The position numbers and the translations under genes are program-made. Below, piece after piece: positions 783-64,000 of a DNA stretch of 64,000 nt (position 1 is the stretch's first letter; each line of letters opens with the position of its first letter). The notes beneath the pieces were generated by a model that saw only the letters and a list, made by a program, of their open reading frames with translations, searched no databases and had not been told where the DNA came from. The stretch is from Chiloscyllium plagiosum (lineage: Eukaryota). The stretch covers positions 28,240,932 to 28,304,931 of the forward strand of contig NC_057726.1 of NCBI RefSeq assembly GCF_004010195.1, written 5' to 3'.

Positions 783-3700
783 ATCAACTTCTTCTCTCAG
801 CTACCTCACACCTCACAGGGCCATCATTCACTCTCACTCTACCACTTACTCTCACTATGACTCACAAACTACAACACTCACTATAGTATGCATTATATCC
901 ACTTTTCTCATCATCTCAAACTCCTTATTCTGGCTTCCCTCTGTGCTTCCTACTCTCTCGCTGGGGTCACCTCACCACCTACCCTGCTCCTGCTTCACTG
1001 TTAACTGCTCTTCCATTCCCTTCCATCATGTCAATCCCTCCCTTTGTCCTATTCAGGGGAAAGCTGATCCACTCCTGAACCGATGTCTCCACAACACCCT
1101 GACTGTGTATGTCTGTAATCCCCGGATAAGTTATACTTGACTAGCAGTTGTACTTGTCTTTGGGCTGCAGGGACAAGGTCCCTGGGGTCTGATAGGATCA
1201 GGTGCCTGACTGACTGTGGCCAACCCTCTGAAATGGAATTATTCAAGTCCTGGACTGACTGATGGTACCCCTGACTGACTATAGTCTTAGTCAATCATAC
1301 TAAGGACTGCTCCCCCTTGAATTTCATACATGACCATTTAATTGAAACACGCATAAAATTCTGGCATATGCTACAGATCTAGTGTTAATATTGCACGGTA
1401 CCACTTAGCAATAGCTGACCCTCTATCTGACTGAAGAGATAGAAGGTCAGTAAAGAGCCTGTGCACTAAGAAAGCCCAATGCAATGAGTAGAAGCCCATA
1501 ACCCAGTGCTGAAGTTATTGAATATGCACTATGAAAGCAATGTGAAATTAAAGTAACCATGAGGTGGAGGTGCCAGTGTTGGACTGGGGTGGACAAAGTT
1601 AAAAATCAGGATTAGAGTGGTGCTGGGAAAGCACTGCAGGTCAGGCAGCATCCAAGGAGCAGGATTGTACTTCGAAAAATTGTACTTCCAAATAAACCTT
1701 TTGGACTATGACTGGTGTTGTGCGATTTTAAAATTAAAGTCACCATTTTCTTACTCTGACTGTAGGGCTGCTCTCTCATTGCAGAGACAGAGAGAGACAA
1801 GTGATGGTTTAACCTAAGGGTTACTATGCCTTAGGCAAGGGGAAAGCTTAAGGAGAGTCCTTCATGATGACTACAGCTAGTGTGGGAATTGAACCCAGCT
1901 GTTTGCATCTGCTGGATGGCTGATGCTAAGTACATAGATGATGGCAGCATCCATGTGAGCACTAAAGAGAGTGAGTGCTAAGAAGCCAAGATGCATCCTG
2001 TGCAGATGAAATGTGTGTATGTTTGTGTGTATATCACTGTGTGCAAGGCAAGCTGACAGAATCATGCAAGTCATAGATGTCCCTGAGTTCCCAAGTAAAG
2101 GGCTAAAGTGGTGTGCAGGTTGTTCTGAGAGCAGCCATGGTGTCAGGGTGAGGCTAGAGGTTTGCTGATGTTTACTTGTGTGGATTAAGGGTCAAGGAGG
2201 AGGTTGGCTGTGGGACAGGTTGGGATATTGTGCTGAGGAAACGATTACACAATGGCTAGGATAAGCATTCTGCGTATTGCAGCCAGCAGGCATCTGCTCT
2301 AGTTAACATGTCGGGAATTTGCGCACATAGTTTCTCTGGATGTGACAGATAAATAAAATAATTTGGGGCTTTAATGAAATTCAAATGCATAAAAATAAGG
2401 TAGCCACTGCTCAATGGTGAGATTCTGAAAACGCCATTTAAGGCTTGAGGAGACGATCGAGAAATTATTTCTTGACATTGAGATTCTGATTCTTTTCATT
2501 CTCACTGTATTTTCCTACCATTTTAGTCATTGCCCACACCACACTGGGGGAGGACTTCCTGCCCATCACTGTTTAAAGAATGTTTATGTCTACAATTGTA
2601 TTACAAATCACTTAGAGGTGGGGAAGTCATGCATGTACTTGTAAAGTCTTACATTGATTTTTGCATTCCAGTATAGAAATATAAACTCAATGGTAAATGT
2701 TGGCATAGGTTCCTATTGGCAAATCAACACAATGCTCTCTAAAAGTCATTGTAATTTTGAATAAGTGTGAATCAGTCAATTCAAGGCAAATTTCCTTAGC
2801 TGCTTTTGATCAGAAATGTGATGTCACAGAGTTGAAGGAAAATAAGACACTTACAGAGATTAATCTTGTTTCATTCTCTGTATTGGTATTCTTTAATGTG
2901 CCTTTGATTGGCACCACATCCATCACTTTTATCACTGACAGACAATGACAGACAGTGTGTATCATCTACAAGAGACACAGCAGTAACTTGTCCATACTGC
3001 TTAGACAGCAGCTTCCAAACTTGCAACTTCTACCACTTAGAAGAACCAGGACAGCGGATAGTTGAAGCTATCACATGCAAGTTCCACCCCAAATCGTACA
3101 CCATCCTGACTTGGAAATATTCTGCCACTCCTTCACAGTCACTGGGTCAATATCCTGAAACTCCCTTCTCAACAGCACTTTAAGTGTACCTATATCCATC
3201 ACTTCCAAGAGTGCGGCTAACCACGGTTTCCTCAGGGGTGAACAGGGATACATAATAAGTGCTGGTCTTGCCAGTAATGCCCACATCCTGTAAATGATGA
3301 AAAAACGAATTTGGTGCTATATTCATGAATCTAAAATCAAAATTATCATGATATAAACAGGGTAGAAATGTTGACTGCAAGATGTAGATGAATGTATCAT
3401 TCCAAGTGTACTCTACTTCCTCAAGCCTAATCCAGTCCATCATTCCTCACACAAACTTACCTTGCTGACTCACCCATCGTGCTCTGTCTATGCACTTTCT
3501 CACATCCCCATCTGCAATCCATTGCTGATCCTTACCCTCATCTTTTTGTCATGCCTCTTGCTCACGGTCATCCCAACAAATGCTCTCCATTCACTCATTC
3601 AACACATGCTATTACACACACCCCTAGATGATTTATCTTCCTCTTTGTTAGAGAGGAGAACACATCACAAAAGTGAGGCTGAAAACCAAAATATGGCTTT

Positions 3701-4217: not shown

Positions 4218-6149
4218 TATCAAAGGGAATGACAAAATGGCAAAAAAAAGAAAAAAAAAATTGTGTCTGCTGTCACAAAAATCATTTACCAGAAAGAGAG
4301 GGTAATCATTGGGGTAATGAGAGTGATGAACATGGAGTATATAATATTAGCAAAGAAAAAAAGTACTGGAGAAACTTAGGGGACTAAAATCTGGTAAATC
4401 CTGACGATCAAACTGCGAACAATGTGGGTTTCTAATCAAAACCCAACTGCAGAGGAAATGGATGCACTGCTTATAACTTTCCAAAATCCTCTTAATTCCA
4501 GAACTGTACAGGATGTAGGTTAACAAATGTAACTCCATAATTCAGGAATGCAGAGAGGTTGAAAATTGTGAGCACAGGCTAGTTAGCCTGATAGAAGTTT
4601 TTGGAAAAATGCATTTTAACAATATAGAGACAAAGTCAATAATGACTTGATGAAAAGGAAAATGTTTATGACAAGTTCATTAGATTTTTTTGAGGATAGA
4701 ATTAATGGATTAGATAAAGGGGAACCAGCCAATGTGGTATATTTGGATTTCCATGAAGGCATTTAATAAAGTGCCGCACAAAAGATTAAAGCGCACAATA
4801 AATGTTTGCAGAGTTGCACGTAAGTTATTAGCATGGATAAAGAATTGGTTGAAGGAAAGAGTGTGGATAAATAGGCAATTTCAAGATGCCAGGCTGTAAA
4901 TAGTGGGAAAGCACAGAGATCAGTGCTGGGGCCCCATCTATTCACAACCTACTGGCCAAATCTTGTGGCAATGATGAGGGTCACAGCTTTCCGTGAGATC
5001 CAATGCGAGTCTTGCATTGCTTCATTTTGGAAAGGCCTACCACAGTGCCTTCCACTCAATCACTTGAAAGGCCAGCAATGGGCCTTTCCCAGGAATCAAA
5101 GAGCCCAGGACAGAAATCCCACCTTCTGAGAGTCAGAGGTCAGTAGCTGCAATGAGTGGCAATACCACTGTGGGTGTGATGATGCTCCTGGTACAACACC
5201 CACCTCAGGATGAAGACTGCTTCTCAATCCCTGGCTGGACATGATGATGGCGGATGGGTCTATTCAGAATGGGGGTCACAGGGGGAATGATCTTAGAAGC
5301 AAGGGCAGAAGGTGGTCTCAGCAAGCCACTCCCTTTTTTGATGCCCTCCTCCTCAATCGGCACTGAATTTGCATCTGGTTCTCCTCCAAATGGCAAGACT
5401 TCTCTACCACTGGGTTACTATCAAAGTACTGTAATTCTCATTCCAAGTTTTATTCCTCAGATGATATCAGAAGATTTAATTTATAAATAGCCAAGGCATT
5501 CTTTTCAATTATTTAATTAACTAGAAGCTCAACATTTGTTTCAAAATATTCTTTCACAAATTATTCCATCACATACCATGTTCACGGCAATACAGAATTA
5601 ATATTCGAATAACATAGATTTACTAAACTGATCTCAACAGAGAGAAACATTTCATGGATACCTTCACAATAATCAATGAGCAGCAGAAGAGAATGTGGAA
5701 TTATGTTAGAGCCATACATTTTACAGAGAAAACAGCATTGTAAGGTATTTAACAGCAGGCTGCAAAACACATAAATCAGTGCATCACCCCAGAACAGTTA
5801 CATACCTTAATTCTGAGCTTTTATAAAAGGCATTTAATTATTTCAGTCTGGGCTCAGTGTTCAGTCAGGAGGTCATGATTTCAAGTAATACTCCAATGAT
5901 TTGAATATGAAATGTAAACTGACACTTCTGCGCAGTACTGGCTATCATCTTCCAGATGGAATACTTGTTGCTGTATTCCTTCTCAATCTATGTTTAAATG
6001 GTGACAGGTAAAGAAAGAGAAACAGGTAAAAAGGCACAAATGCAAATAAACAGATAATCACGAGATGTACAGACACATTTCAAATAATTACCTTCTTGCG
6101 GTTGATTCAAAGCTTTATTGTTGCAGCTCAATCAGATGTTCAGTCATAA

Positions 6150-6338
6150 TCAACAAATCAATGTGGACTTCACCAGTTTCCTCATTTCCCCTTCCCCCAC
6201 CTCCACCTCTTACTTATCTCTCCACTCTGCAGGCACTCTGCCTCTATTCCTGATGAAGGGCTTTTGCCCGAAACGTCGATTTTCCTGCTCCTCGGATGCT
6301 GCCTGACCTGCTGTGCTTTTCCAGTACCACTCTAATCT
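6150..6338 (+). mobile_element. Penelope-like pseudo-LTR fragment
   Basis: Same terminal sequence as the 9.3, 19.0 and 61.4 kb copies. Confidence 0.75.
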
Positions 6339-8431
6339 ATAATCAATATATATACTGGGGCAATTAATAAAAATGAGAAATAATTCATACAAAATCAGCT
6401 AAATAAGTCAAAAAGCTGAGTATTATCTGTTTCACTGAACAAAATACATCATACCAAAGCACGTAAATTTTGAGTAACTTTTCCATTAGCATTATCTTTA
6501 AGAACACTGAGCTATGGTGTATTCAACAAGCATGATAAGCAAGTATACATCAGCTTTATTTCTGCTAAAACTTCAAACTGTTAAAGTTTTATTTCAAAAG
6601 ATATTTCTGGCACAATTCACCAAAGTAATTCCTGCATTTTATCATTTCTACAGTGAGCCAGTGGGTTATCTTTTTGAAAATTGGAATAAAATATACTTTT
6701 ATTATCTTGTATGCTCCATTGTAGGAGTACAGTGAAACGCTTTTACAATGTCTGCCTTCTTAAGGCGACATCTTAGGTGCAAGTACCTAGTTCCAGCAGA
6801 GAACTACAAATAATTGCATTACTCTACAGAATTGAAAAATAGACACCAGTCCAACAGTCATCCCTGTTCCGTTCCAAGCTCCAGTCTGCTCCATACCAGC
6901 ACTCAGCTGCTCCATGGCAAGTTCCAGGATTTCCTCCCCTGTGCCAGTGTCCACCTGGGACTCGCTGCGTGTGCACTATTCCAGGGCTTGCTGCTCCAGG
7001 GATTTGCTGCCAGTGCCCGCCGCTGGTCCAGGATTTGCCTCTGGTGCTAAGGAAGAAGAAGAAAAAAAGAGGAAAATAAAGAAAAAAGGAAGAAGAAGAA
7101 GACCAGGCAGAGCAGAGGAGCTCCTGCAGGAGTGTCCTACTCTGCAGCAATCTTGATCAAATTATTCATCATGTTGAATGTCTGCTGTATTTTTTCTGGA
7201 GTTTTCTTTTTAGCGTGGTTTTCATCATACCCCAAATTTAGAAATGCTTATTTTGAATATTGGTAGTTACAAAACATAAGGGGAATATTCTATGTGCAAA
7301 ATGTATGAAATCATAATCATATAATTTAAAAGTTTACAAATTTGTAACAAGATGCGCATAGGTAATATCAAACATACCTGCAATTAATATTATTTGCTAA
7401 GCTACAGATGATGCGATTGTTTATTTTAACCAACGTCTGTTCAGCTTTATCATAAGCTTCACTTACGTTGTTTAATTTCCCAGGGGATTAAATGTTTTTA
7501 CACTTAGTTGCCCTGCAGAAATAAGTACTTGTTCTTCCGATAAAGCAGATGATGTCTAAGAACAACCAAAAAGAATTCTAATCCAATGACATTGATTCAT
7601 ACTCCTGCACTTTGTTAAAACTAAAATCAGTATCAAATACAATTGAATTATCATTCAAAGCAAAAACAGAAATTGCTGGAGGAACTCAGCTGGTCTGGCA
7701 GCATCTATGGAGAGAAAGCAGAAACAATGTTTCGGATGCAGTGACCCTTTCCCAGAACTATTCAAAACTAGTTGTCCAAAGTGCTGCCTTGGAGAAAGTG
7801 GCTGAGATTTCAAATCCAAGTGACTCTTCTCCAGAACAGACTTGAAACATTAACGCTGTTTTCTCTCCACCAATACTGCCAGACCTGCTGAAGTCCTCCA
7901 GCAATTTCTGGTTTTGTTTGATTTTTCCAGCATCCACAGTTCTTTGTTTTAATGATTATTTATCCAGTGCAAAACATTTTCTGTTTTGTTTCTGTATTAT
8001 TGTGGCATTTAAATGTACTGGAAAGTCATAAATCAAAAAATCTTCTATTTATCTGTTTCAATTTAAGCATGGGCATTTTCATAGTTCATAAAAGAATTTA
8101 TTGATTCATGATTGAGCACCATCTCCACGATAACATTTTGATAAAAGGGAAAGGTGTGCCAGTATTTTGTTCAGAATGGGTTAACCGCAATGTTCAATGG
8201 ATCTTTGATTTTTTAAAAAAAATCTTATCAAAAGTATTTAAATTATCACTGAGAGATAATGGCATATATTATTTTGTGTCATGCACACATGTAAAGTAGC
8301 CTAGAATGAGGGCAAAAGATGGATCCATTATAATTCTAATAATATTGTATACATAAAAAGCAACTGAATATTGTAAAAATGCACTAAGGTACACATTATG
8401 TTTATTAAAGCACAGCTCAAATGCTAAGTCT

Positions 8432-26271: not shown

Positions 26272-26574
26272 GCTACAGTGACTTCACCTTTTGTTTTATT
26301 GAGGGGATGCAGCTCCGTCTCTGGGTGAGACATGAAATCAAAGCTCCCACCCAGGAGCATTGTGCTGAAGTGAAGAGGACTCTGTAAAACCCACCCAATA
26401 CCAGGCTATCAGGAGATGACCCACTGTGACTCTGCGCGACTTTACTGTTCGCAAACCGCGTGCTAATATCAATACACACCGTTTCCGCGGTGACATTCCG
26501 CAAACCCGAACATTTACTTGGAGCAGCAAGGAGCTGCCATTGACAGCGCCTCTATGTTGTTGTTGTTGCCGCCG

Positions 26575-26612
26575 CCGGAAGCGGAAGTGAGGCCGGTCAC
26601 CAAGATGGCGGC
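26575..26612 (+). promoter_or_regulatory. COG8 CpG-island promoter core: tandem ETS/GABPA sites and a YY1 motif overlapping the ATG
   Basis: gCCGGAAGCGGAAGTga followed by CAAGATGGCGGC, typical of TATA-less housekeeping promoters. Motif match only. Confidence 0.55.
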
Positions 26613-27147
26613 GCTGGGCATCGACGTGGAGGACGAGAGTATCCTGGCGTCGATTTTCCGGGATTGTTTCCCGGAGAACTGGAGGGAGAACGCGGATTTC
26701 ACGGTGTACCTGTCCGAGCTGAGCTCGTACGGAGTGGAGAAGCTGACCCGGGAGCCCGAGAGGCTGGCGGAGGACAGGGCCCAGATCCTGCAGCAGACCC
26801 AGCAGCTGGCCTTCTCCAACTACAAAACATTCATCAAAACGGCCGAGTGCACCAAGGAGATCTACCGAGACTTCGGCCTGGTCGAGAAGCACGTCTCCGC
26901 CCTCCTGGACAAGCTGCCCGGACTCAGCGAGAAATGCAGGCAGTTCATCCGAGAGACGGAGGAGACCGGCGCCAGCAGGAGGATGAACAGCCTGACCCTG
27001 AACCGCCACACCGAGATCCTGGAGATCCTGGAGATCCCTCAGCTCATGGACACCTGTGTCAGGAACGGCTACTACGAGGAGGCTCTCGAGCTGACCGCTT
27101 ACGTGAAGAGGCTGGAGAAGAAACACTCTTCCATACCCGTCATACAG
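26605..27147 (+). CDS. COG8: COG8 (conserved oligomeric Golgi complex subunit 8) coding exon 1
   Basis: ATG in caagATGgcg context. Translates MAALGIDVEDESILASIF...LAFSNYKTFI...LNRHTEILEILEIPQLMDTCVRNGYYEEALEL...SSIPVIQ (Dor1/COG8 family). 543 nt, donor CAG|GTATCA at 27147/27148, CpG-rich. Confidence 0.96.
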
Positions 27148-29151
27148 GTATCAAAACCAGGAAGGGCTGCAGAAACTCAATACAAGAACAGAAATGGCTG
27201 GAGAAACTCAGCAGGTCAAGCAGCATTCGTGGAGAGAAAACAAGCGTTAACGTTTTGCATCCAGTAAGCTGCCCTCAGAACTGGAATACAGAGGAACCTC
27301 CATTATCTGAATGAAATGGACAGGCACTGTTTCGTTTGGATAATTGATATATTCGGTTAATTGATTCAATGCTTTTCCTCTGGGGCTCAGAGTTTTCTGT
27401 TAATTCTGCTCCCCATTCAGGAGATGAGGCAGCAGCACACTGCGTACGAGTCCCCAACCCTGTCCAACCCCAACCCCTGCGTGCCTCTCCCCCCACTCCC
27501 AGGGGCAGCTGAATTGGACACCAACAACAAGGCAGCTGCTGCTGCTGCCTTATGGGGGGGTGAGTCTCCAAATAGCACACGCACACAGCGCCCCACACAC
27601 AACAGTTAATCGAGTTTCCTCTGTAATTCAGAATAGAAATTGCTGGAGAAACTCAGCTAGTCAGGCAGCACATCCGTGAAGAGAAGTCAGAGTTAATGTT
27701 TCAACCTTGATATGACTCCTCTTCAGAACTTCAGAACTAATTCTGAACTGGACTTCTGAAAGAGAGTTTTATTTCTCTCTCCACAGTTGCTGTCAGACCT
27801 GTTGAGTTTCTCCAGAACTTTCTGATTTCATTTCCAATTTGCAGTGCCCACGGTATGTTGACTGATACACATGTCACTACCCTTTGTGAATGTCTGTCTT
27901 CAGTATTAGCTATGAGTGAGAATTGGTTTTAAAGTGTTCTGAATGTTGCATAATTCTTCACAATATGACATAAGGTCTTTTTCCCAGAGTAGGGGAGTTC
28001 AAAACTAGAGGACATAGGTTTAAAGTGAGAGGGGAACGATTTGAAAGAGACATAAGGGGTAACTTTTTCATGTGGAGGGTGGTGTGTTTATGGAATGACC
28101 TGTCAGAGGAAGTGATGTGGGCTTGTATAATTACAGCATTTAAAAGGCACCTGGATGGGTACATGAATAGGAAGGGTTTGGAGAGGTGTGGGCCAAATGC
28201 TGGCAAATGAGACTACAGGTAGTTCTTCTATAATTCGATGGTTGTGTTCTTGTGCATCTCGACATTATTAGAAAAATTGTGCTTTGTCAACACTTTAAGC
28301 ACTGTTTCTAATGTACTTGCATTACAGCCAACACACGTTTTAAACGTTCACGCTTTAAAAAGTGTCAACAATTTGTCAATCACATTGCAATGAATTCACG
28401 TTAACGAAACGCGAGCTATAGCAGAATAACCTGTAGAATAATTTAGGAAATCTGGTCAGTATGGATGAAATTGACTGAAGGGTCTCTTTCTGTGTTGTAT
28501 AACTATCATTGTCTAAGTAGACACACAAAAGCAAATATTCTACTGCAGATATTGGAAATCTGAAGCAAAAGTGGAAAATGCCAGGAAGTTATTTAAAAAT
28601 TAATAAATAAGGCGTGGGCTAGCATTTCTTGCCAGTTGGCCTTGAGAAGATTGTGGTCAGCTTGAACTGCTGCAGTCCATTTATGTAGTTATATACACAG
28701 AGATGTTAAGGAGGAACTTCTAGGATTTTGAAACAACAGCGACATAGTTGGAAAGCACTATCTAAGGAACCTTGATGAATTTCTACAGTGCATTTTGTAA
28801 GTGGCTAACACTACTGCTATTGTGTGCAGTAATGGAGGGAGTGAATGTTTTCAGGATGTGTTGCCATTGTATTTATGTAATTAGCTCAGTTTTAGTCAAT
28901 GGTAAACCCCACACACACCCTCCCCCAAATGTTAGCAACATAGGATTCAGTGATGGTAATGGCATTGAATGTCAAGAACAATGGTTGGATTGTCTGTTTG
29001 GAGTGCTTGTGTGGCAAATGTTACAAATATGAATTGCTAGTTGCCACTTGTCAGCCCAAGCCTGGATATCGTCCAGGTCTTGCTTTGTATGGGCACAGAT
29101 TGTGTCAATATCTGACAAGTTGTAAATAGTGCTGAACATTATGCATTTGGT

Positions 29152-31060: not shown

Positions 31061-31553
31061 ATGAAGGGAGGAAGGTCAATGATGAAGTAGCTGCAATGCA
31101 GGGTAGTGCCTAGGCTACTACCCTGAGGAATTCCTGCAGAGATGTCCTGGAGCTGGGATAGATAGATGACCAGAAACATCATCTTTTGTGCTCGGTCTAA
31201 CTCCAACCAGCAGAGTTTTCCCTTAATTTACATTGACTATAATTTTGTTACGGTTCTTTGATGCCATCCTTGGTCAAATGTGGCCTTGATGTGAATATTA
31301 ATGACAAGGCCATTGTTTGTTGCTCACCCCGAATTTTCCTTATTGTAATAATAGAAATAACTGAGTTGTAGCTGTAATTTTAAGTTTGTTTTAATGCAAC
31401 AAAAACGCTATCTAAAACTTACTCTTTATTCCACTAATTTTATATGTTTTGGTTTATCTTCTCATCTTTGCTTATGGGAAATATACATTTAGTTCTTTTT
31501 AATCTAAATCTCTGAAACATTTTAATGTATTGGCTATTATTTTTCTCATGCAG

Positions 31554-32372
31554 GGAATAGTGAATGAAGTGCGTTCTTCTGCTCAGTTGATGTTAAACCA
31601 GCTTATCCAACAGCTACGAACCAATATCCAACTTCCAGCGTGTCTACGGGTCATAGGCTATTTGAGAAGAATGGATGTATTCACTGAAGCTGAATTAAGA
31701 ATAAAGTTTCTTCAAGCTCGAGATGCCTGGTTGAAATCTATGCTTGCCTCCATAATGGACAGTGATCCTTACTTTCACGTAACTAAAACAATTGAGGCTT
31801 GCCGAGTCCATCTGTTTGATATTATCACTCAATATCGTGCTATTTTCTCTGATGAAGATCCTTTATTGCTTTCCAGTAATCACACTGTGAATGAAAGTGC
31901 TATTTTCCATGGCTGGGTGGTGCAAAAGGTTTCTGAATTTTTGCAGACTCTGGAATTGGATCTTCAGAAGGGTGTAGGTGGCCGCTTGGATTCATTGCTG
32001 GGCCAATGTATGTATTTTGGGCTTTCTTTTAGTCGTGTGGGAGTAGATTTTCGAGGTCAGCTTGCTCCTATGTTTCAAAAGGTTGCTATGAATACTTTTG
32101 AGAAAGCAATTCAGGATGCTGTGGAGAAGTTTCAGGAAGACATGAATCTGTACACATTAACCTCTGCCCCTCCAATATTAGGCAGCACGATCCCTGTGTC
32201 TCTACCAACTAATCAGCCAGGCACCCTACAACCTCCAATGGTACTTCTGGACTTTCCTCCGCTGGCATGTTTTCTAAATAACAATTTGGCAGCTTTTAAT
32301 GATCTTCGCCTCTGTTGTCCCATAGCACTTGCACAGGAGGTTACCACGTGCTTGGAAGATGCACTTGTGAAG
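31554..32372 (+). CDS. COG8: COG8 coding exon 2
   Basis: Acceptor ttttctcatgcag|GGA. GIVNEVRSSAQLMLNQLIQQLRTNIQLPACLRVIGYLRRMD...LDSLLGQCMYFGLSFSRVG...LLDFPPLACFLN...DALVK. 819 nt, donor AAG|GTATTT. Confidence 0.96.
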
Positions 32373-34603
32373 GTATTTTAACTATTGTTACCACACCATA
32401 ATTAAAGTATTTTAAAAACTTTAACGAAGCAACTTTAGGAATACACACAGCTGTGTTTTCTTACAGTTTAAATTCATTAAAGTACTAAATTCTCATTTCC
32501 TTTACAGTAATATTTGTTCCGCTACAACCTTCCAACACTTAACTATTTTCCTGGGCATATTTCATAAAAGGGGGAAAAAAAGGATGAGGCCAAATTTGTA
32601 CAATTTCTGCAAAAATATAACAATAATCACATAGTTTGAATTTTAGAGAGTACTGTATTCCCATATTTAAATTAGTGTTTGTTTATATAGCAATGCTGAT
32701 GATACATGGTATTCTAAGGATGGAAATAGCATTTCCAACTTAATATTATTGCCACAAGGGCATAGTTTGAAGTTTTTGAATCCACTATGTGCTGTTCATG
32801 TCTTGCTTTTCCAAGGCATTGCTTCTAAAATTTGTTACATCCTAAAAAGCCTCATAAAGAGAGTGGAAATGGGCAAGTATATGTCAGTTGACTTGACAGC
32901 TATTGAGTAAGACTGGAGCTTATTGTTATGACAGTCTTAACAATGCACTTAGGTCATAATATGACCTGGCAGAGTCATATGGTTTCACAAAAATTGTTGA
33001 CAAATGTATTTTTAAGGATGTAACTAGCAGCAAAAAGGGGAACCAGTAGCTGTAGTATACTTGGATTTCCAAGAGACATTCGATAAGGTGCCACCCAAAA
33101 AATTATGAAAGATGATGACTAATGGAGTTGAGAGAAATACACTAATTTGCATGAAGGATCAATTCAAAGAAAGCTGAAACTAGGGAGTTTGGAATTTGAA
33201 GTAAAATTTCAAAATTTGATAATTCTAAACTTGAAATATAGTTGATGTTGAGAATGATACCAATCGACTGTACAGAATATCAGAATGAGCCGTGAAGTTG
33301 CAGATGGATTTTAGTACGTAGAAATGAGAGTTGATGCAATTTTGGCAAAAGCAATATAGCCTGGAAGAGTAGTCCTAAAAGAGTGTTGGGACAGAGAGTC
33401 CTAGGGCTTAATTTGAATAGATGTTTTGAGGGTGGTGGGAGAGCAGTCAGTAAAGAGATTTTGGACTTCAGAAATTGAAGCAATGAGAGCAAAGGCTGGA
33501 AGTTACTCTGAGCCTGTTTAAAACCATGGTTAGTCCAAAGCTGGTGTATTGCATCCACATCCAGTCACTGTGCTTCAAGAAGGCTGTGAGGATCTTTGAG
33601 AGAGGTCAGAGGACATTTTCCAAAATGATTCTAGTGAGGAAGTATTTTAGCCAAAAGGTTATGTTAGACATAGAATTTTCTTTCCTTGGAGCGAAAGAGA
33701 TTGAAGGAGAGGTGTGCAAGATTTTGACAGCTTTAGATAAGGCAGACATTGAAAGATGTTCCCATTAGCTGAAGGTGTAAAGGCTAAGGGACATTCCTTT
33801 AATCTTTTGGACAAAATATGCAGGTGGATCTCAAGGAGAACATTTTATTTCAAGTGTTGCAATCTTGGTCAAGGCTAGTGACATTTTCCCTTTGAAAAAT
33901 GAAATCTAAAATCTGTCATTTATTGAAAAAAATGAAACCACAAGATTTCACTTAGAAAACAGAAGAATATTTACTATACGTAACTCAAACAAAACCAAGA
34001 CAAAATCCTGTCTTTGGTACCCCTGTATACTCCCAAACTCAGAATCGCTAAAGTTACAAAATGAATCAACAGGCAGAATACAGTTGATTGGTGTCCTTCC
34101 AATCAGGTTCAGTCTCGGAAGTTTTTGTTTCCAATTGTAGTTTATTTTTGTTGCCTGAGAAACTGAGTCAGTTCCTTTTCTGTATATGGTTTCTTTTTCA
34201 ATTTTCTTTTTCAGTTGGGAGTTCATTTCAAGATAAGTTACAAACTTTGACCACAGATTTCATCACAGTTGGGAGTGAGCTACGAGTTGCTCCCTATGAA
34301 AATGGTGGAGGCTGAGCCAATGACTGATTTAGATTTATGGGTAGTAATGGGAATAAATTTACCACTCGTAAGGAAATGGAACTAACTGCAGTGCTCTACA
34401 GAGCTCGCAAGAAATTGATAGACTGAAAGACCTCCTTCTGTCCCATAATAATTCTATGATCATTGGGGTTTTGTTGTTCAGTAGTTCTACTTGATAAATG
34501 AAGAATGATAATAGTGGCAACTCTGTCTTTCTTTATAGAAATGTTAAATGTTGAGCAAATTTTCAGAAAATGTATGATTTTCTAATTCAGATTTTCTTTG
34601 TAG

Positions 34604-60103: not shown

Positions 60104-61609
60104 GATTAGTGGTGCTGGAAGAGCACAGCAATTCAGGCAGCATCCGAGGACAGGCAAAATCGATGTTTCGGGCAAAAGCCCTTCATTAGGAATAAAGGCA
60201 GAGAGCCTGAAGCGTGGAGAGATAAGGTAGAGGAGGGNNNNNNNNNNNNNNNNNNNNNNNNNNNNNNNNNNNNNNNNNNNNNNNNNNNNNNNNNNNNNNN
60301 NNNNNNNNNNNNNNNNNNNNNNNNNNNNNNNNNNNNNNNNNNNNNNNNNNNNNNNNNNNNNNNNNNNNNNNNNNNNNNNNNNNNNNNNNNNNNNNNNNNN
60401 NNNNNNNNNNNNNNNNNNNNNNNNNNNNNNNNNNNNNNNNNNNNNNNNNNNNNNNNNNNNNNNNNNNNNNNNNNNNNNNNNNNNNNNNNNNNNNNNNNNN
60501 NNNNNNNNNNNNNNNNNNNNNNNNNNNNNNNNNNNNNNNNNNNNNNNNNNNNNNNNNNNNNNNNNNNNNNNNNNNNNNNNNNNNNNNNNNNNNNNNNNNN
60601 NNNNNNNNNNNNNNNNNNNNNNNNNNNNNNNNNNNNNNNNNNNNNNNNNNNNNNNNNNNNNNNNNNNNNNNNNNNNNNNNNNNNNNNNNNNNNNNNNNNN
60701 NNNNNNNNNNNNNNNNNNNNNNNNNNNNNNNNNNNNNNNNNNNNNNNNNNNNNNNNNNNNNNNNNNNNNNNNNNNNNNNNNNNNNNNNNNNNNNNNNNNN
60801 NNNNNNNNNNNNNNNNNNNNNNNNNNNNNNNNNNNNNNNNNNNNNNNNNNNNNNNNNNNNNNNNNNNNNNNNNNNNNNNNNNNNNNNNNNNNNNNNNNNN
60901 NNNNNNNNNNNNNNNNNNNNNNNNNNNNNNNNNNNNNNNNNNNNNNNNNNNNNNNNNATCCCAAAGCGTCCTTCCACATCGGTCAGCAATTTACCTGTAC
61001 CTCCACTAATGTCATTGACTGTATCCATTGCACCAATTGTGCTCTCCTATACATCGGAAGGCCGGACACCAACTTGCAGATTGTTTCAGAGAACATCTCT
61101 GGGATACCTGCACCAAACAGCCCCGTAGCTGAACACTTCAGCTCCCCCTCCCAATCTGCCGAGGACATACAGGTCCTGGGCCTCCTCCGTCGCAAAACCA
61201 TTACCACCCAACGCCTGGAAGAACAGTGACTCATATTCCGTCCTGGCACCATGTAACCACACAGGATTAACGTGGATTTCACTGGTTTCCTCATTTCCCC
61301 TCGCCCCATCATATCCCAGTCTAAAGCCTCCAACTCGGCACCACCATCTTGAACTGTTCATTGCCTTTCCCACCTATCCGCTCTATCCTCCTGTCGGACC
61401 TATCACCATTACCTCCACCTCCATCTGCCACTTATCCTCCCCTAGCTTATCTCTCCATGCTTCAGGCTCTCTGCCTTTATTCCTGATGAAGGGCTTTTGC
61501 CCGAAACATCGATTTTGCCTGTCCTCGGATGCTGCCTGAATTGCTGTGCTCTTCCAGCACCACTAATCCAGAATCTGGTTTCCAGCATCTGCAGTCATTG
61601 TTTTTACCT
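60104..61609 (+). mobile_element. Penelope-like element with inverted 5' pseudo-LTR and degenerate GIY-YIG (gap inside)
   Basis: FTCTSTNVIDCIHCTNCALLYIG fragment at about 60990-61060, inverted terminal repeats, and direct repeat CTATGCTTTCAGCTG at 60089-60103 and 61610-61624. Confidence 0.85.
60238..60957. other. Assembly gap (also 9215-9314 and 18879-18991)
   Basis: Runs of N, all three inside Penelope-like elements. Confidence 0.99.
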
Positions 61610-62111
61610 CTATGCTTTCAGCTGCCCAGGCCTTGGACTCTGGAATGTTAATTCTTGATCAGTAGGGTTAAGGAAAGTGGGCGTAAGAACAGTTGGATCA
61701 GTCATGATCCTATAGTGTTTCAGTGTAGGCTTGAGGTGTCAAACAGCCTACTTCTGTTTGTATTTCTTATGGTCTCATGGTAACCATATAACCATTGTCA
61801 ATTGTTGTCGAACTCATCTGGTTCACGAATGACCACCCACAAATGGGAGGAAGTTTGCTGTCCTTACCTTGTCTGGTCTAGATGTAATTCCTGACCCAAA
61901 AAAATGTGCTTGACTTCTAAGTGCCCTTTGAAGTGGCACAATTAGGGCTGAGCAACAAATGCCAGCGATGCCTATATTCCATGGAAGAAAAAAACTCCTT
62001 CTTCTCTCTCCCTCTTTTAAATGCTTTAAGATACTCCTGTTAACCTACTCTTCATCTGTTCTTAAATCTCTTATGTGACTGTGTTAGGTTCTTCTACTCT
62101 TCTTACATACT

Positions 62112-62484
62112 TGATGCAACTACAACACACCAACCTCTGAACAAGCAACCAAATTTATTAAGCACAGTACAGCACAAGCTTTCTGGAGGAACCTTTAACA
62201 CACACCTTGCAGAGCTACGGGGTTGTGGCAAAAGCTGTCCCTAAACAAAGGAACCAGTCTTTATACAAAACTCTCAACATCACAGTTAGGACTGCCCACA
62301 AGGCACCCCTCAGAAACAGTGTAATACAAATCATCCCTTAATGGTCAAATCTGTTGCATATTGTTTTTTCTAACTATAGGGGAGTAGTCAAATTCCAACT
62401 GTATATTGTTGTTATTGATTTCTGGATGAAAATGGCCATGTAAACTTCCCACATTCCGCCTGTAAGACGAAGACAAACCACTTT

Positions 62485-62518
<34 letters not shown>

Positions 62519-62582
62519 GGCATTCAATTTCTTGCAGATCCACAGAGCAATTTAACTCTTTAATATCTCATTCCCTTCTTTT
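62112..62582 (-). mobile_element. ERV polypurine tract and 3' LTR (about 459 bp, 62570-62112)
   Basis: On the minus strand: AAAAGAAGGGAA|TGAGAT start, TATAAA near 62260-62265, AATAAA near 62154-62159, and a ...TGCATCA end. Confidence 0.75.
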
Positions 62583-62601
62583 ATCATTCCATGATAACCA
62601 C

Positions 62602-62793
62602 CTAGTAGATGTGGGATGAGAAAGGCACTACCAATTTGTTCATAAGAATCTTATAGCCAGTACTTAAGCATGTTATTGACATAACAAAAATTACTAGTCC
62701 ACGCAGTAGATAGGATCCTCCTATGTGGGAAAAAAAGTTCACCAGTGAAGTTCTTAAATCCACCGTCCATAGTGACCACTCCATCCCCTCCAA
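62602..62793 (-). mobile_element. Probable env TM membrane-anchor and cytoplasmic-tail remnant of the ERV
   Basis: ...NFFSHIGGSYLLRGLVIFVMSITCLSTGYKILMNKLV...: a hydrophobic span ending just upstream of the polypurine tract. Based on position and composition only. Confidence 0.5.
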
Positions 62794-62923
62794 GTTGAGT
62801 AGAAACGAGCCAGTTATCCAAGATCTCCTTCAGGAAAGTCCAACTTGAAAATAAAGTTCAGTCGGCCCTTGCACACCACTCCACAGAGAAATCCGAATTC
62901 TTGGATAACGGAAGTTAAAGACT

Positions 62924-63246
62924 TCACAAAACTGACGAGACATTCATCCTTGCGGAGACTCTTCAGATCGAGGATACCAGCGCATCTGGCCATGTAGTGC
63001 AGCGGCTGCAGTAGCAGCAGGCTAGGTGAACGCAGCATTCTTTGCTGCTTCTGCTCCCACTCTGCTGTTAAGTGTAACAGCCAACTGGCTGTTGTGATGT
63101 TAGCTTGATCAGGAAGCCTTCATATTCCTTTAAATATCGAAAAGAAGGTAAAGCTGACGTGGTTTAATGTCCGTAGGAAGGCCACTGACAAAAAACAAAC
63201 AGACCTCCTCTTCACCGTTGTTAGCTTCTTCACTTTTCTTGCACAT
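62924..63246 (-). pseudogene. RBPMS2: Intronless, internally deleted RBPMS2-like cDNA copy embedded in the ERV
   Basis: With two frameshift corrections: MCKKSEEANNGEEEVCLFFVSGLPTDIKPRQLYLLF / KEYEGFLIKLTSQQPVG / VTLNSRVGAEAAKNA-AFT*PAATAAAALHGQMRWYPRSEESPQG*MSRQFC. Matches the RBPMS/RBPMS2 RRM and C-terminus from memory. The poly-Ala LHxQMRWYP tail favours RBPMS2 over RBPMS. Confidence 0.9.
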
Positions 63247-63279
63247 GACTGGGGAGCTGATTGAATCCATCGGATCAGG

Positions 63280-64000
63280 TTGTGGAGGGGTGGGCGGTGG
63301 TCCGAAGGCGTCCTTTACCTGTGAATGGAGAAACTCTTGAGACGATGCTAGCTGATGAAAGTATCTTTGGATTTCCTCTTCCATAATATTTAAGTCTACA
63401 TGGGTGGGTGGGTCTGCGTTTGCATCCCAAGGGGTCCTACTGGGTCAGCCATAAATTATTTTGGCTGCCAATAGCCCAGTGGTTGAGTGTGGAGTAATCT
63501 TCATGTGATACAGGGCTAAAGGCAAGACATTCAACCAGTTGAGGCCTGTTTCAGACATTAACTTAGTTAGTTTGGTTTTAAGAGTCCTGTTTGCTCTTTC
63601 CATATTCCTGCTGCCAGAGGGTGGTAAGCGCAATGGAATTGCTGCTGGATATGCAGCGTCTCACGTAGCTCTTTGTTGATTTTCCCTACAAAATGGGGGC
63701 CATTGTCTGAACTAAGCTGCCGAGGCACACCATACCTCAGTATGATCGCTGTCAGGAGTAATTTTACCACCGTTGAGACTTTATTATTAGTGATCAGAAA
63801 AGCTTCGATCCATCTACTAGATAAGTCAATAATAACAAGGCAATACAATGTATGCGTGGCAGTTCAATGAAATCAAGCTGGATACAATCGAATGCACCAC
63901 CTGACAAGGGTGTTCTCCCTGTTACGCACTGCATCCCTTGACTGGTAATGTTTTGCTGACATATTAAACATCATTTGACACGCTTTTGGGCTGCTTCAGC
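63280..64000 (-). mobile_element. ERV pol integrase (gamma/epsilon-like class I), degenerate and truncated by the window edge
   Basis: CLICQQ zinc finger, IQLDFIELP, YCLVIIDLSSRWIEAF, RYGVPRQLSSDNGPHF, HCAYHP, ERANRTLKTKLTK, WLNVLPLAL, TPHSTTGL, IIYG*PSRTPW. DDE integrase core with frameshifts and a TGA that is probably a decayed CGA. Confidence 0.93.

Follow-up and report, generated by a model that had tools for sequence, protein, structure and literature searches.

The last part of the stretch of shark DNA analysed here (the window, 64,000 nt, G000:C17:28240932-28304931; all window positions are counted within that stretch) was initially annotated as an endogenous retrovirus (ERV) carrying a spliced host RBPMS2 mRNA in place of the integrase C-terminus and most of env. 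The locus raises the question of whether a retrovirus took up a host mRNA and whether the hybrid then replicated. The answer is very probably yes. The locus is a decayed class I (gamma/epsilon-like) ERV in which spliced rbpms2 mRNA replaces those viral parts. The hybrid, present at hundreds of loci, likely goes back to one template-switch origin and likely spread through the proteins of env-bearing relatives.

The provirus and its captured rbpms2 sequence

The components were found on the minus strand in the order first described (integrase core, linker, RBPMS2-like sequence, env tail, purine tract, LTR) and were delimited as follows.

63380..64000, minus strand: decayed integrase, end of the N-terminal domain and catalytic core (Pfam rve, tblastn map, sequence)
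63293..63379, minus strand: integrase post-core linker, kept in nearly all cargo-bearing copies examined
63269..63292, minus strand: remnant of the 5' capture junction (comparison with long-form copies)
63035..63268, minus strand: captured rbpms2 mRNA, exons 1-4 (88-93% to host exons 1-4 on G000:C40)
62923..63034, minus strand: captured rbpms2 mRNA, last part of exon 6 plus exon 7, the C-terminal 37 codons (host-exon alignment, junction motif)
62713..62922, minus strand: captured 3' UTR of rbpms2, from the end of exon 7 and exon 8, as far as an 8-base microhomology with env
62583..62712, minus strand: env transmembrane and tail remnant, matching the 3' end of env-bearing relatives
62571..62582, minus strand: polypurine tract (sequence)
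62082..62570, minus strand: 3' LTR, type 1, TG...CA (TG start at 62570; AATAAA at 62159)

The integrase core was matched on the minus strand by Pfam rve (E 1.6e-14). The zinc finger annotated with it has its histidines just past 64000, outside the window. For the 3' LTR, TG...CA and AATAAA were recovered, and the end was moved from 62112 to 62082 because the 5' LTR beyond the window shows the same end. The TACT-type duplication predicted at 62108-62111 was therefore misplaced; at the true flanks of the provirus, two of four target-site bases agree. Extension past 64000 did recover the expected gag-pol and 5' LTR. Gag-pro-RT-RNase H, the primer site and the 5' LTR occupy 6.9 kb past the window end, to about 28311810 of G000:C17, and this part is interrupted by stops, frameshifts and later insertions. 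A profile search matched Pfam RNase_H in the provirus. The later repeat insertions lie at L031 oriented 1090-1290, 2600-3040 and 5975-6155; two of them are a short repeat also found at window 61400-61600 and one is a longer piece within gag.

The RT of a close relative was nearest to MLV among solved structures (E 3e-25, versus 2e-14 for foamy virus) and 57-73% identical to pol proteins labelled Mustelus, Amblyraja, Mobula, Scyliorhinus, Heptranchias and Leucoraja. The env of one relative matched Pfam TLV_coat, as a gamma-type env does. In these three respects the family resembles class I ERVs of cartilaginous fish. Judged by these protein matches, the provirus is a class I ERV, gamma- or epsilon-like.

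Several side observations were made on the locus. A run of about 30 G at 62486-62517, in U3 of the 3' LTR, is absent from the 5' LTR, and G-rich runs also occur in LTRs of other family copies. On the plus strand, two long exon-like frames (26494-27264 and 31503-32378) matched Pfam Dor1 (COG8-type; E 4.5e-53 and 7.5e-75); the provirus lies about 30 kb downstream of them, on the opposite strand. The skate protein P0122 ('zinc finger protein 271-like') contains an RT domain 67% identical to that of the provirus family and is probably a fused gene model.

The insert matched RBPMS/RBPMS2 entries of the PDB (E 2e-8 to 5e-7), and its closest full-length protein was shark RBPMS2 (P0002). The parent rbpms2 gene on G000:C40 spans 106 kb in eight exons, with canonical splice sites and an open frame of 194 codons. 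Positions 63268-62713 of the window align to seven of these exons (1-4, the end of 6, 7 and 8) at 80-93%. Five true exon junctions are crossed and, relative to the host gene, the insert is intronless, which bears out both the proposed identity and the spliced origin. It starts with 22 nt of 5' UTR, followed by the start codon at 63246 and the first half of the RRM (exons 1-4). A stretch of 252 nt, beginning within exon 4 and ending within exon 6, is missing; the junction (63035/63034) is in frame and the deletion ends share a 1-base homology. The frame contains two frameshifts and two stops. The segment 63246-62924 is intronless, as annotated, and does not hold the whole CDS. Its host 3' UTR measures about 210 nt instead of the estimated 100 nt. 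As stated earlier, neither a poly(A) nor a duplication flanks the insert.

The capture as a repeated family

Viral sequence was replaced by the insert and not merely interrupted, as had been proposed. Between the same anchors, 1.3-1.8 kb were found in six measured env-bearing relatives versus 0.6 kb in the window, and comparison with env-bearing relatives set the viral loss (integrase C-terminus and most of env) at 1.3-1.5 kb. A search with the integrase core gave 30 loci, of which 7 (6 elements) contained host sequence and 23 did not. Host sequence was absent from all 19 ten-kb relatives picked by integrase or RT similarity. Two cargo-free relatives (L133, L137) have large gag-pol deletions of their own, so the parent family also had non-autonomous offshoots; the integrase of L137 groups with form A and B copies (defined below).

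At the 3' capture junction, 8 bases are common to the host 3' UTR and env. At the 5' junction, a microhomology of 7 bases joins an RT piece to the host 5' UTR. Long-form copies carry about 186 extra bases at the site of 63269-63292, including the RT-derived piece and more host 5' UTR. Their order is linker, a short weakly gag-like piece, about 85 bases of RT, then host 5' UTR. The RT-derived filler scored 53-69 against shuffled maxima of 24-26 in three of six parsable copies. That the first filler piece derives from gag is only weakly indicated, its scores being clearly above shuffles in one of three. This anatomy matches template switching as described for LTR-mediated retroposition (Tan et al., 2016; PMC5131818), where microhomology at both junctions has a reported median of 6 bp.

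With the window insert as genome query, 587 candidates were obtained; of the best 40, which were scored, all 39 others were near full-length at 82-85%. The three sequence searches gave 587, 557 and 835 candidates. The junction motif of the 252-nt deletion (forms C and D) occurred 296 times in the genome (two mismatches allowed) and that of form D 334 times (three mismatches), with 0 for the controls; both counts are lower bounds at the divergence of the family. The long 5' junction query gave 33 long matches among 37. Identical junctions at several loci had been proposed as the sign of a replicating chimera, and shared junctions were found in abundance. The refuting outcome, a single copy within continuous virus, is absent: the hybrid is multi-copy, its junctions are common to the copies and viral sequence is replaced. 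The chimera lies between two LTRs and was re-transposed. Since the same virus-host hybrid occupies hundreds of loci, its spread was likely aided by intact relatives.

From 99 mapped copies, 7 duplicates were dropped, leaving 92 (12 A, 21 B, 1 C and 58 D); three further loci had no mappable host piece. The copies compared are thus about 100 of several hundred, chosen as best-scoring rather than at random. Form A is the full capture, form B lacks the C-terminus and form C has only the 252-nt deletion. Form D combines this deletion with a 186-nt 5' deletion; it is the shortest form, without the second half of the RRM, and includes the window copy. Form D outnumbers A and B together roughly ten to one. 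One common deletion of most of gag-pol was seen in most of 20 A/B loci read over 10 kb, and most of these also lack 648 nt of integrase. The tree of captured sequences is star-like and weakly supported, and a few copies cross groups; the order of events therefore rests mainly on the nested deletions. In 11 automatically parsed elements, target duplications agreed at 4/4 bases in two and at 3/4 in three; the automatic procedure misplaced some ends, and further four-base duplications were seen by eye.

In two form D frames, the match to Pfam RRM_1 extends over model positions 1-58 of 70. The complete RRM of a functional RBPMS2 paralogue is lacking from form D, in which part of the domain is missing. 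Three public 'RBPMS2-like' proteins labelled Chiloscyllium plagiosum (P0001, P0003, P0005) are gene models on copies of the element, made of linker plus deleted RBPMS2. In annotation they should be read as retroviral element copies rather than paralogues.

Most D copies lack gag-pol. Among the 58, LTR type 2 with a second internal region was found in 40 and LTR type 1 in 9; the remaining 9 were unassigned or partial. The second internal region is a non-coding 1.8-kb leader, and cargo was present at 29 of 30 loci found with it. No match was obtained when this region was compared with 25 retroviral proteins in seven copies. An Rfam search of three elements found nothing. The window element has a tRNA-Leu(CAA) primer site (1 mismatch in 20) and LTR type 2 elements have a tRNA-Ser(AGA) site. 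A search with the second LTR returned 2196 candidates. Thirty loci were examined: at 13 the LTR flanks the cargo family, and at the other 17 none of the internal probes matched; these 17 are probably solo LTRs, given this lack of match and the target duplications at several of them. No element combining LTR type 2 with coding genes was seen among the 30 loci. In some copies (L044 oriented 4840-6370, L225, L050), a tandem unit of about 57 bases in the second-type leader is expanded to more than 1 kb. Two D copies lying 450 kb apart on G000:C37 (L004/L034 and L005/L035) have many cassette changes in common (support 0.96) and different LTR types, a pattern that suggests gene conversion or a small recombinant sub-lineage.

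Origin of the window copy and fate of the captured frame

RNase H and the integrase core are retained in one of the 58 D copies, that of the window. No other RT-bearing locus carries cargo among those checked, which took in all but about five of the strong RT matches. The RNase H-integrase segment of the window falls in a clade with eight env-bearing parents (support 99/97), apart from A/B copies; an AU test did not reject the alternative of placing the window pol among forms A and B (p=0.109). Because it is the only D copy with an integrase core and its pol grouped with env-bearing helpers, the window copy is likely a helper-by-cargo recombinant. Intact and deleted integrase each occur with long and short cargo, so either recombination or repeated identical deletion is needed.

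The LTR pair of the window differs by 11% on a gap-free count; its pair distance of 0.122 is ordinary for the family. A first blast identity of 72% had raised the idea that the two LTRs belong to different elements; it was dropped on the gap-free value. Distances were measured for 32 LTR pairs, and the medians were 0.156 (13 A/B), 0.114 (4 D, type 1) and 0.139 (15 D, type 2). Contigs of run X14, which bears another species label, tile 63209-64000 at about 97% identity (about 2.5% differences) and bridge the core/linker point at 63379. Contigs of run X10 match 63694-64000 exactly. Under a third organism label, contigs reach every one of the 30 bins into which a D element was divided, and they cross the 252-nt junction. 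If the X14 copy is orthologous, the insertion would be about five times older than the split from that organism; orthology is taken from identity, because the flanks lie outside the comparison. No per-year shark rate was found in the literature consulted, and no absolute age is therefore given.

Other origins of this structure were weighed. Insertion of a LINE-made rbpms2 retrocopy into a provirus already in place would fit a genome in which LINEs are abundant, and LINEs are reported to drive most vertebrate retrocopies (10.64898/2026.06.26.734816). It is nevertheless extremely improbable: there is no poly(A), the 3' UTR is cut internally at the env homology, the 1.3-1.5 kb of virus are gone and RT-derived filler stands at the 5' junction. 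As a direct origin, LINE insertion was ruled out by this anatomy. An assembly error joining a parent provirus to a cargo element is given next to no weight either. It is true that the window copy is the sole example of its architecture among the copies examined and that no single aligned contig crosses the whole stretch. However, a 221-base contig of run X14 covers 63209-63430 with 9 differences and overlapping contigs of that run continue to 64000 at single-copy depth, while the nearest paralogues are only 83-86% alike. Misassembly, named earlier as an outcome that would refute the capture, was thus not seen, the integrase-core/linker point being bridged independently.

More weight, though still that of an unlikely explanation, goes to an exchange after insertion. 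In this account the family is real, and a helper provirus and a D copy gave rise to the full-length window copy through gene conversion or unequal exchange. The window flanks agree at only two of four bases, so such a proviral exchange may have occurred. The single D copy with an integrase core and the conversion suggested by the two copies on G000:C37 point the same way. Against it, the window LTR distance equals that of three other D copies of type 1 (0.106-0.121), and mosaic backbones are common in the family, as RNA-level recombination predicts. Recombination between helper and cargo genomes before insertion is preferred.

Copy-to-copy dN/dS was 0.96 (0.74-1.26) for form D, 0.75 (0.62-0.92) for A and B together and 0.84 for A, and neutral simulations gave 0.75-0.96. 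The copies drift neutrally. Host-to-copy values (0.42-0.66) cannot be credited to the virus because they include the constrained history of the host gene itself. The captured frame is unbroken in 0 of 12 form A copies and in 5 of 58 form D copies, the latter without half the RRM. Low dN/dS and intact full-length ORFs, as expected of a captured gene kept by selection, were not found.

The linker (63293-63379) contains two splice-acceptor-like sites, an AG at 63337-63336 specific to form D and a CAG/G near 63319. The former was present in 24 of 27 D copies versus 0 of 14 A/B/parent copies, and in a wider set in at least 44 of 54 versus 0-1 of 27. The leader ATG lies in the same frame as this acceptor. 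With the 186-nt deletion, an integrase-frame stop common to long-form copies is lost, and the 252-nt and 648-nt deletions are in frame. The public gene model P0003, on another copy, predicts a splice from the leader donor to the D-specific acceptor. Changes common to the D stem comprise 5 non-synonymous and 4 synonymous ones. That D-specific changes keep one spliced frame open gives a weak hint of past selection. One poly(A) run was sampled at 2%: 176 records aligned to a type 2 element, and in 17 of them a poly(A)-like end lay within the LTR, a signal that solo LTRs could produce. Contig joints of run X4 near the leader donor were too imprecise for splice calls.

It was considered whether the cargo is no passenger, the spliced form D frame (four leader codons, linker, half RRM and C-terminal tail) having aided germ-line spread. 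The acquired acceptor, the cleared stop, the in-frame deletions, the exact use of leader donor and D acceptor by P0003 and the ten-to-one excess of D would fit this, as would the reported role of the RBPMS2 C-terminus in directing granule localisation in zebrafish somatic cells (PMC6049948). However, three in-frame events have a chance of 1 in 27 and were noticed post hoc, and the D-stem changes are too few to show constraint. The deletion takes out the alpha2/beta4 loop, beta4 and the C-terminal loop, reported as required for RNA binding and dimer formation (PMC4783296), and germ-granule localisation is reported to require RNA binding (PMC6049948). The burst tracks the LTR switch, D with LTR type 1 amounting to only 9 of 58 copies, and few D frames are unbroken. 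A beneficial cargo is accordingly held to be quite unlikely. The fuller version is equally doubtful: a germ-granule gene cut to a half-RRM and C-terminal tail, whose leader-spliced mini-protein or RNA drove the burst, its cassette passing between two LTR families and then back to a full-length virus. Most likely the cargo is a passenger, and signals acting in cis (LTRs, primer site, leader, acceptor, purine tract), rather than RBPMS2 function, would best account for its spread.

The following history is proposed. The captured gene would at first have been full-length and shortened later. Several switches at short homologies would have brought in the whole CDS together with 77 nt of 5' UTR and about 215 nt of 3' UTR. 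Forms A and B, deleted for gag-pol, would then have spread (about 35 loci), and two more deletions would have produced form D. The main burst would have come after the D cassette had passed to the second LTR with its leader. The window copy would result from recombination, upstream of 63337, between a D cassette and a full-length helper genome.

Known captures and meaning

In acutely transforming retroviruses, host mRNA replaces viral genes, replication is helper-dependent and the host sequence lies behind the env splice acceptor. The shark element resembles viruses of the Hz4-FeSV type in all three respects. It differs in that the cargo encodes an RNA-binding protein and is not a growth gene, in being a germ-line fossil and in that no benefit to the virus is demonstrated. 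Hz4-FeSV (v-kit) is named as acutely transforming in a study of crocodilian ERVs (Chong et al., 2014; PMC4299795). That study describes CrocERV31 with nectin3 and CrocERV29 with KIT-ligand. On its account, these too are ancient ERV lineages with a captured host mRNA, the capture is older than a species split and a deletion derivative is known. The nearest known case, as far as that account goes, is CrocERV31, in which nectin3 replaces env in six copies, as rbpms2 does here. The crocodilian cases are reported with six and nine ORF-bearing copies and purifying selection, whereas the shark family shows hundreds of copies, neutral drift, nested deletions and a changed LTR and primer site.

LTR-mediated retroposition (PMC5131818), for which human HERV-K/FAM8A1 and mouse IAPEy cases are described, is similar in that internal ORFs are replaced, the insert lacks a poly(A) or duplication and later rounds proceed as non-autonomous elements. 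The features of such capture that were tested (intronless insert, replacement, microhomology, re-transposition) are present in the shark family. The cases described there are young or single loci; the shark capture has several hundred copies on two LTR backbones and likely went back onto a gag-pol genome. No description joining RBPMS2, an endogenous retrovirus and a shark was found in the main texts of the open-licence papers searched. A protein search with the linker alone gave one candidate, unscored, and no match in other species, a weak result since such copies are rarely annotated.

The reading of a shark ERV lineage that transduced a host RRM gene is backed by spliced origin, replacement, common junctions and high copy number. 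On the published accounts, the class of capture is already known (crocodilian nectin3, human FAM8A1). The shark family differs from these in its scale, in its nested intermediates, in having switched LTR and primer site and in the likely return to gag-pol. Had selection acted on the in-frame changes of form D, the family would be a case in which a retroelement adapted a germ-granule gene to its own spread. Captures described in those sources have a handful of copies each, and here hundreds likely derive from one event. The parent gene, env-bearing helpers, full-length capture, deletion intermediates and backbone switch are held in one genome, a well-preserved natural record of germ-line retroviral transduction in cartilaginous fish.
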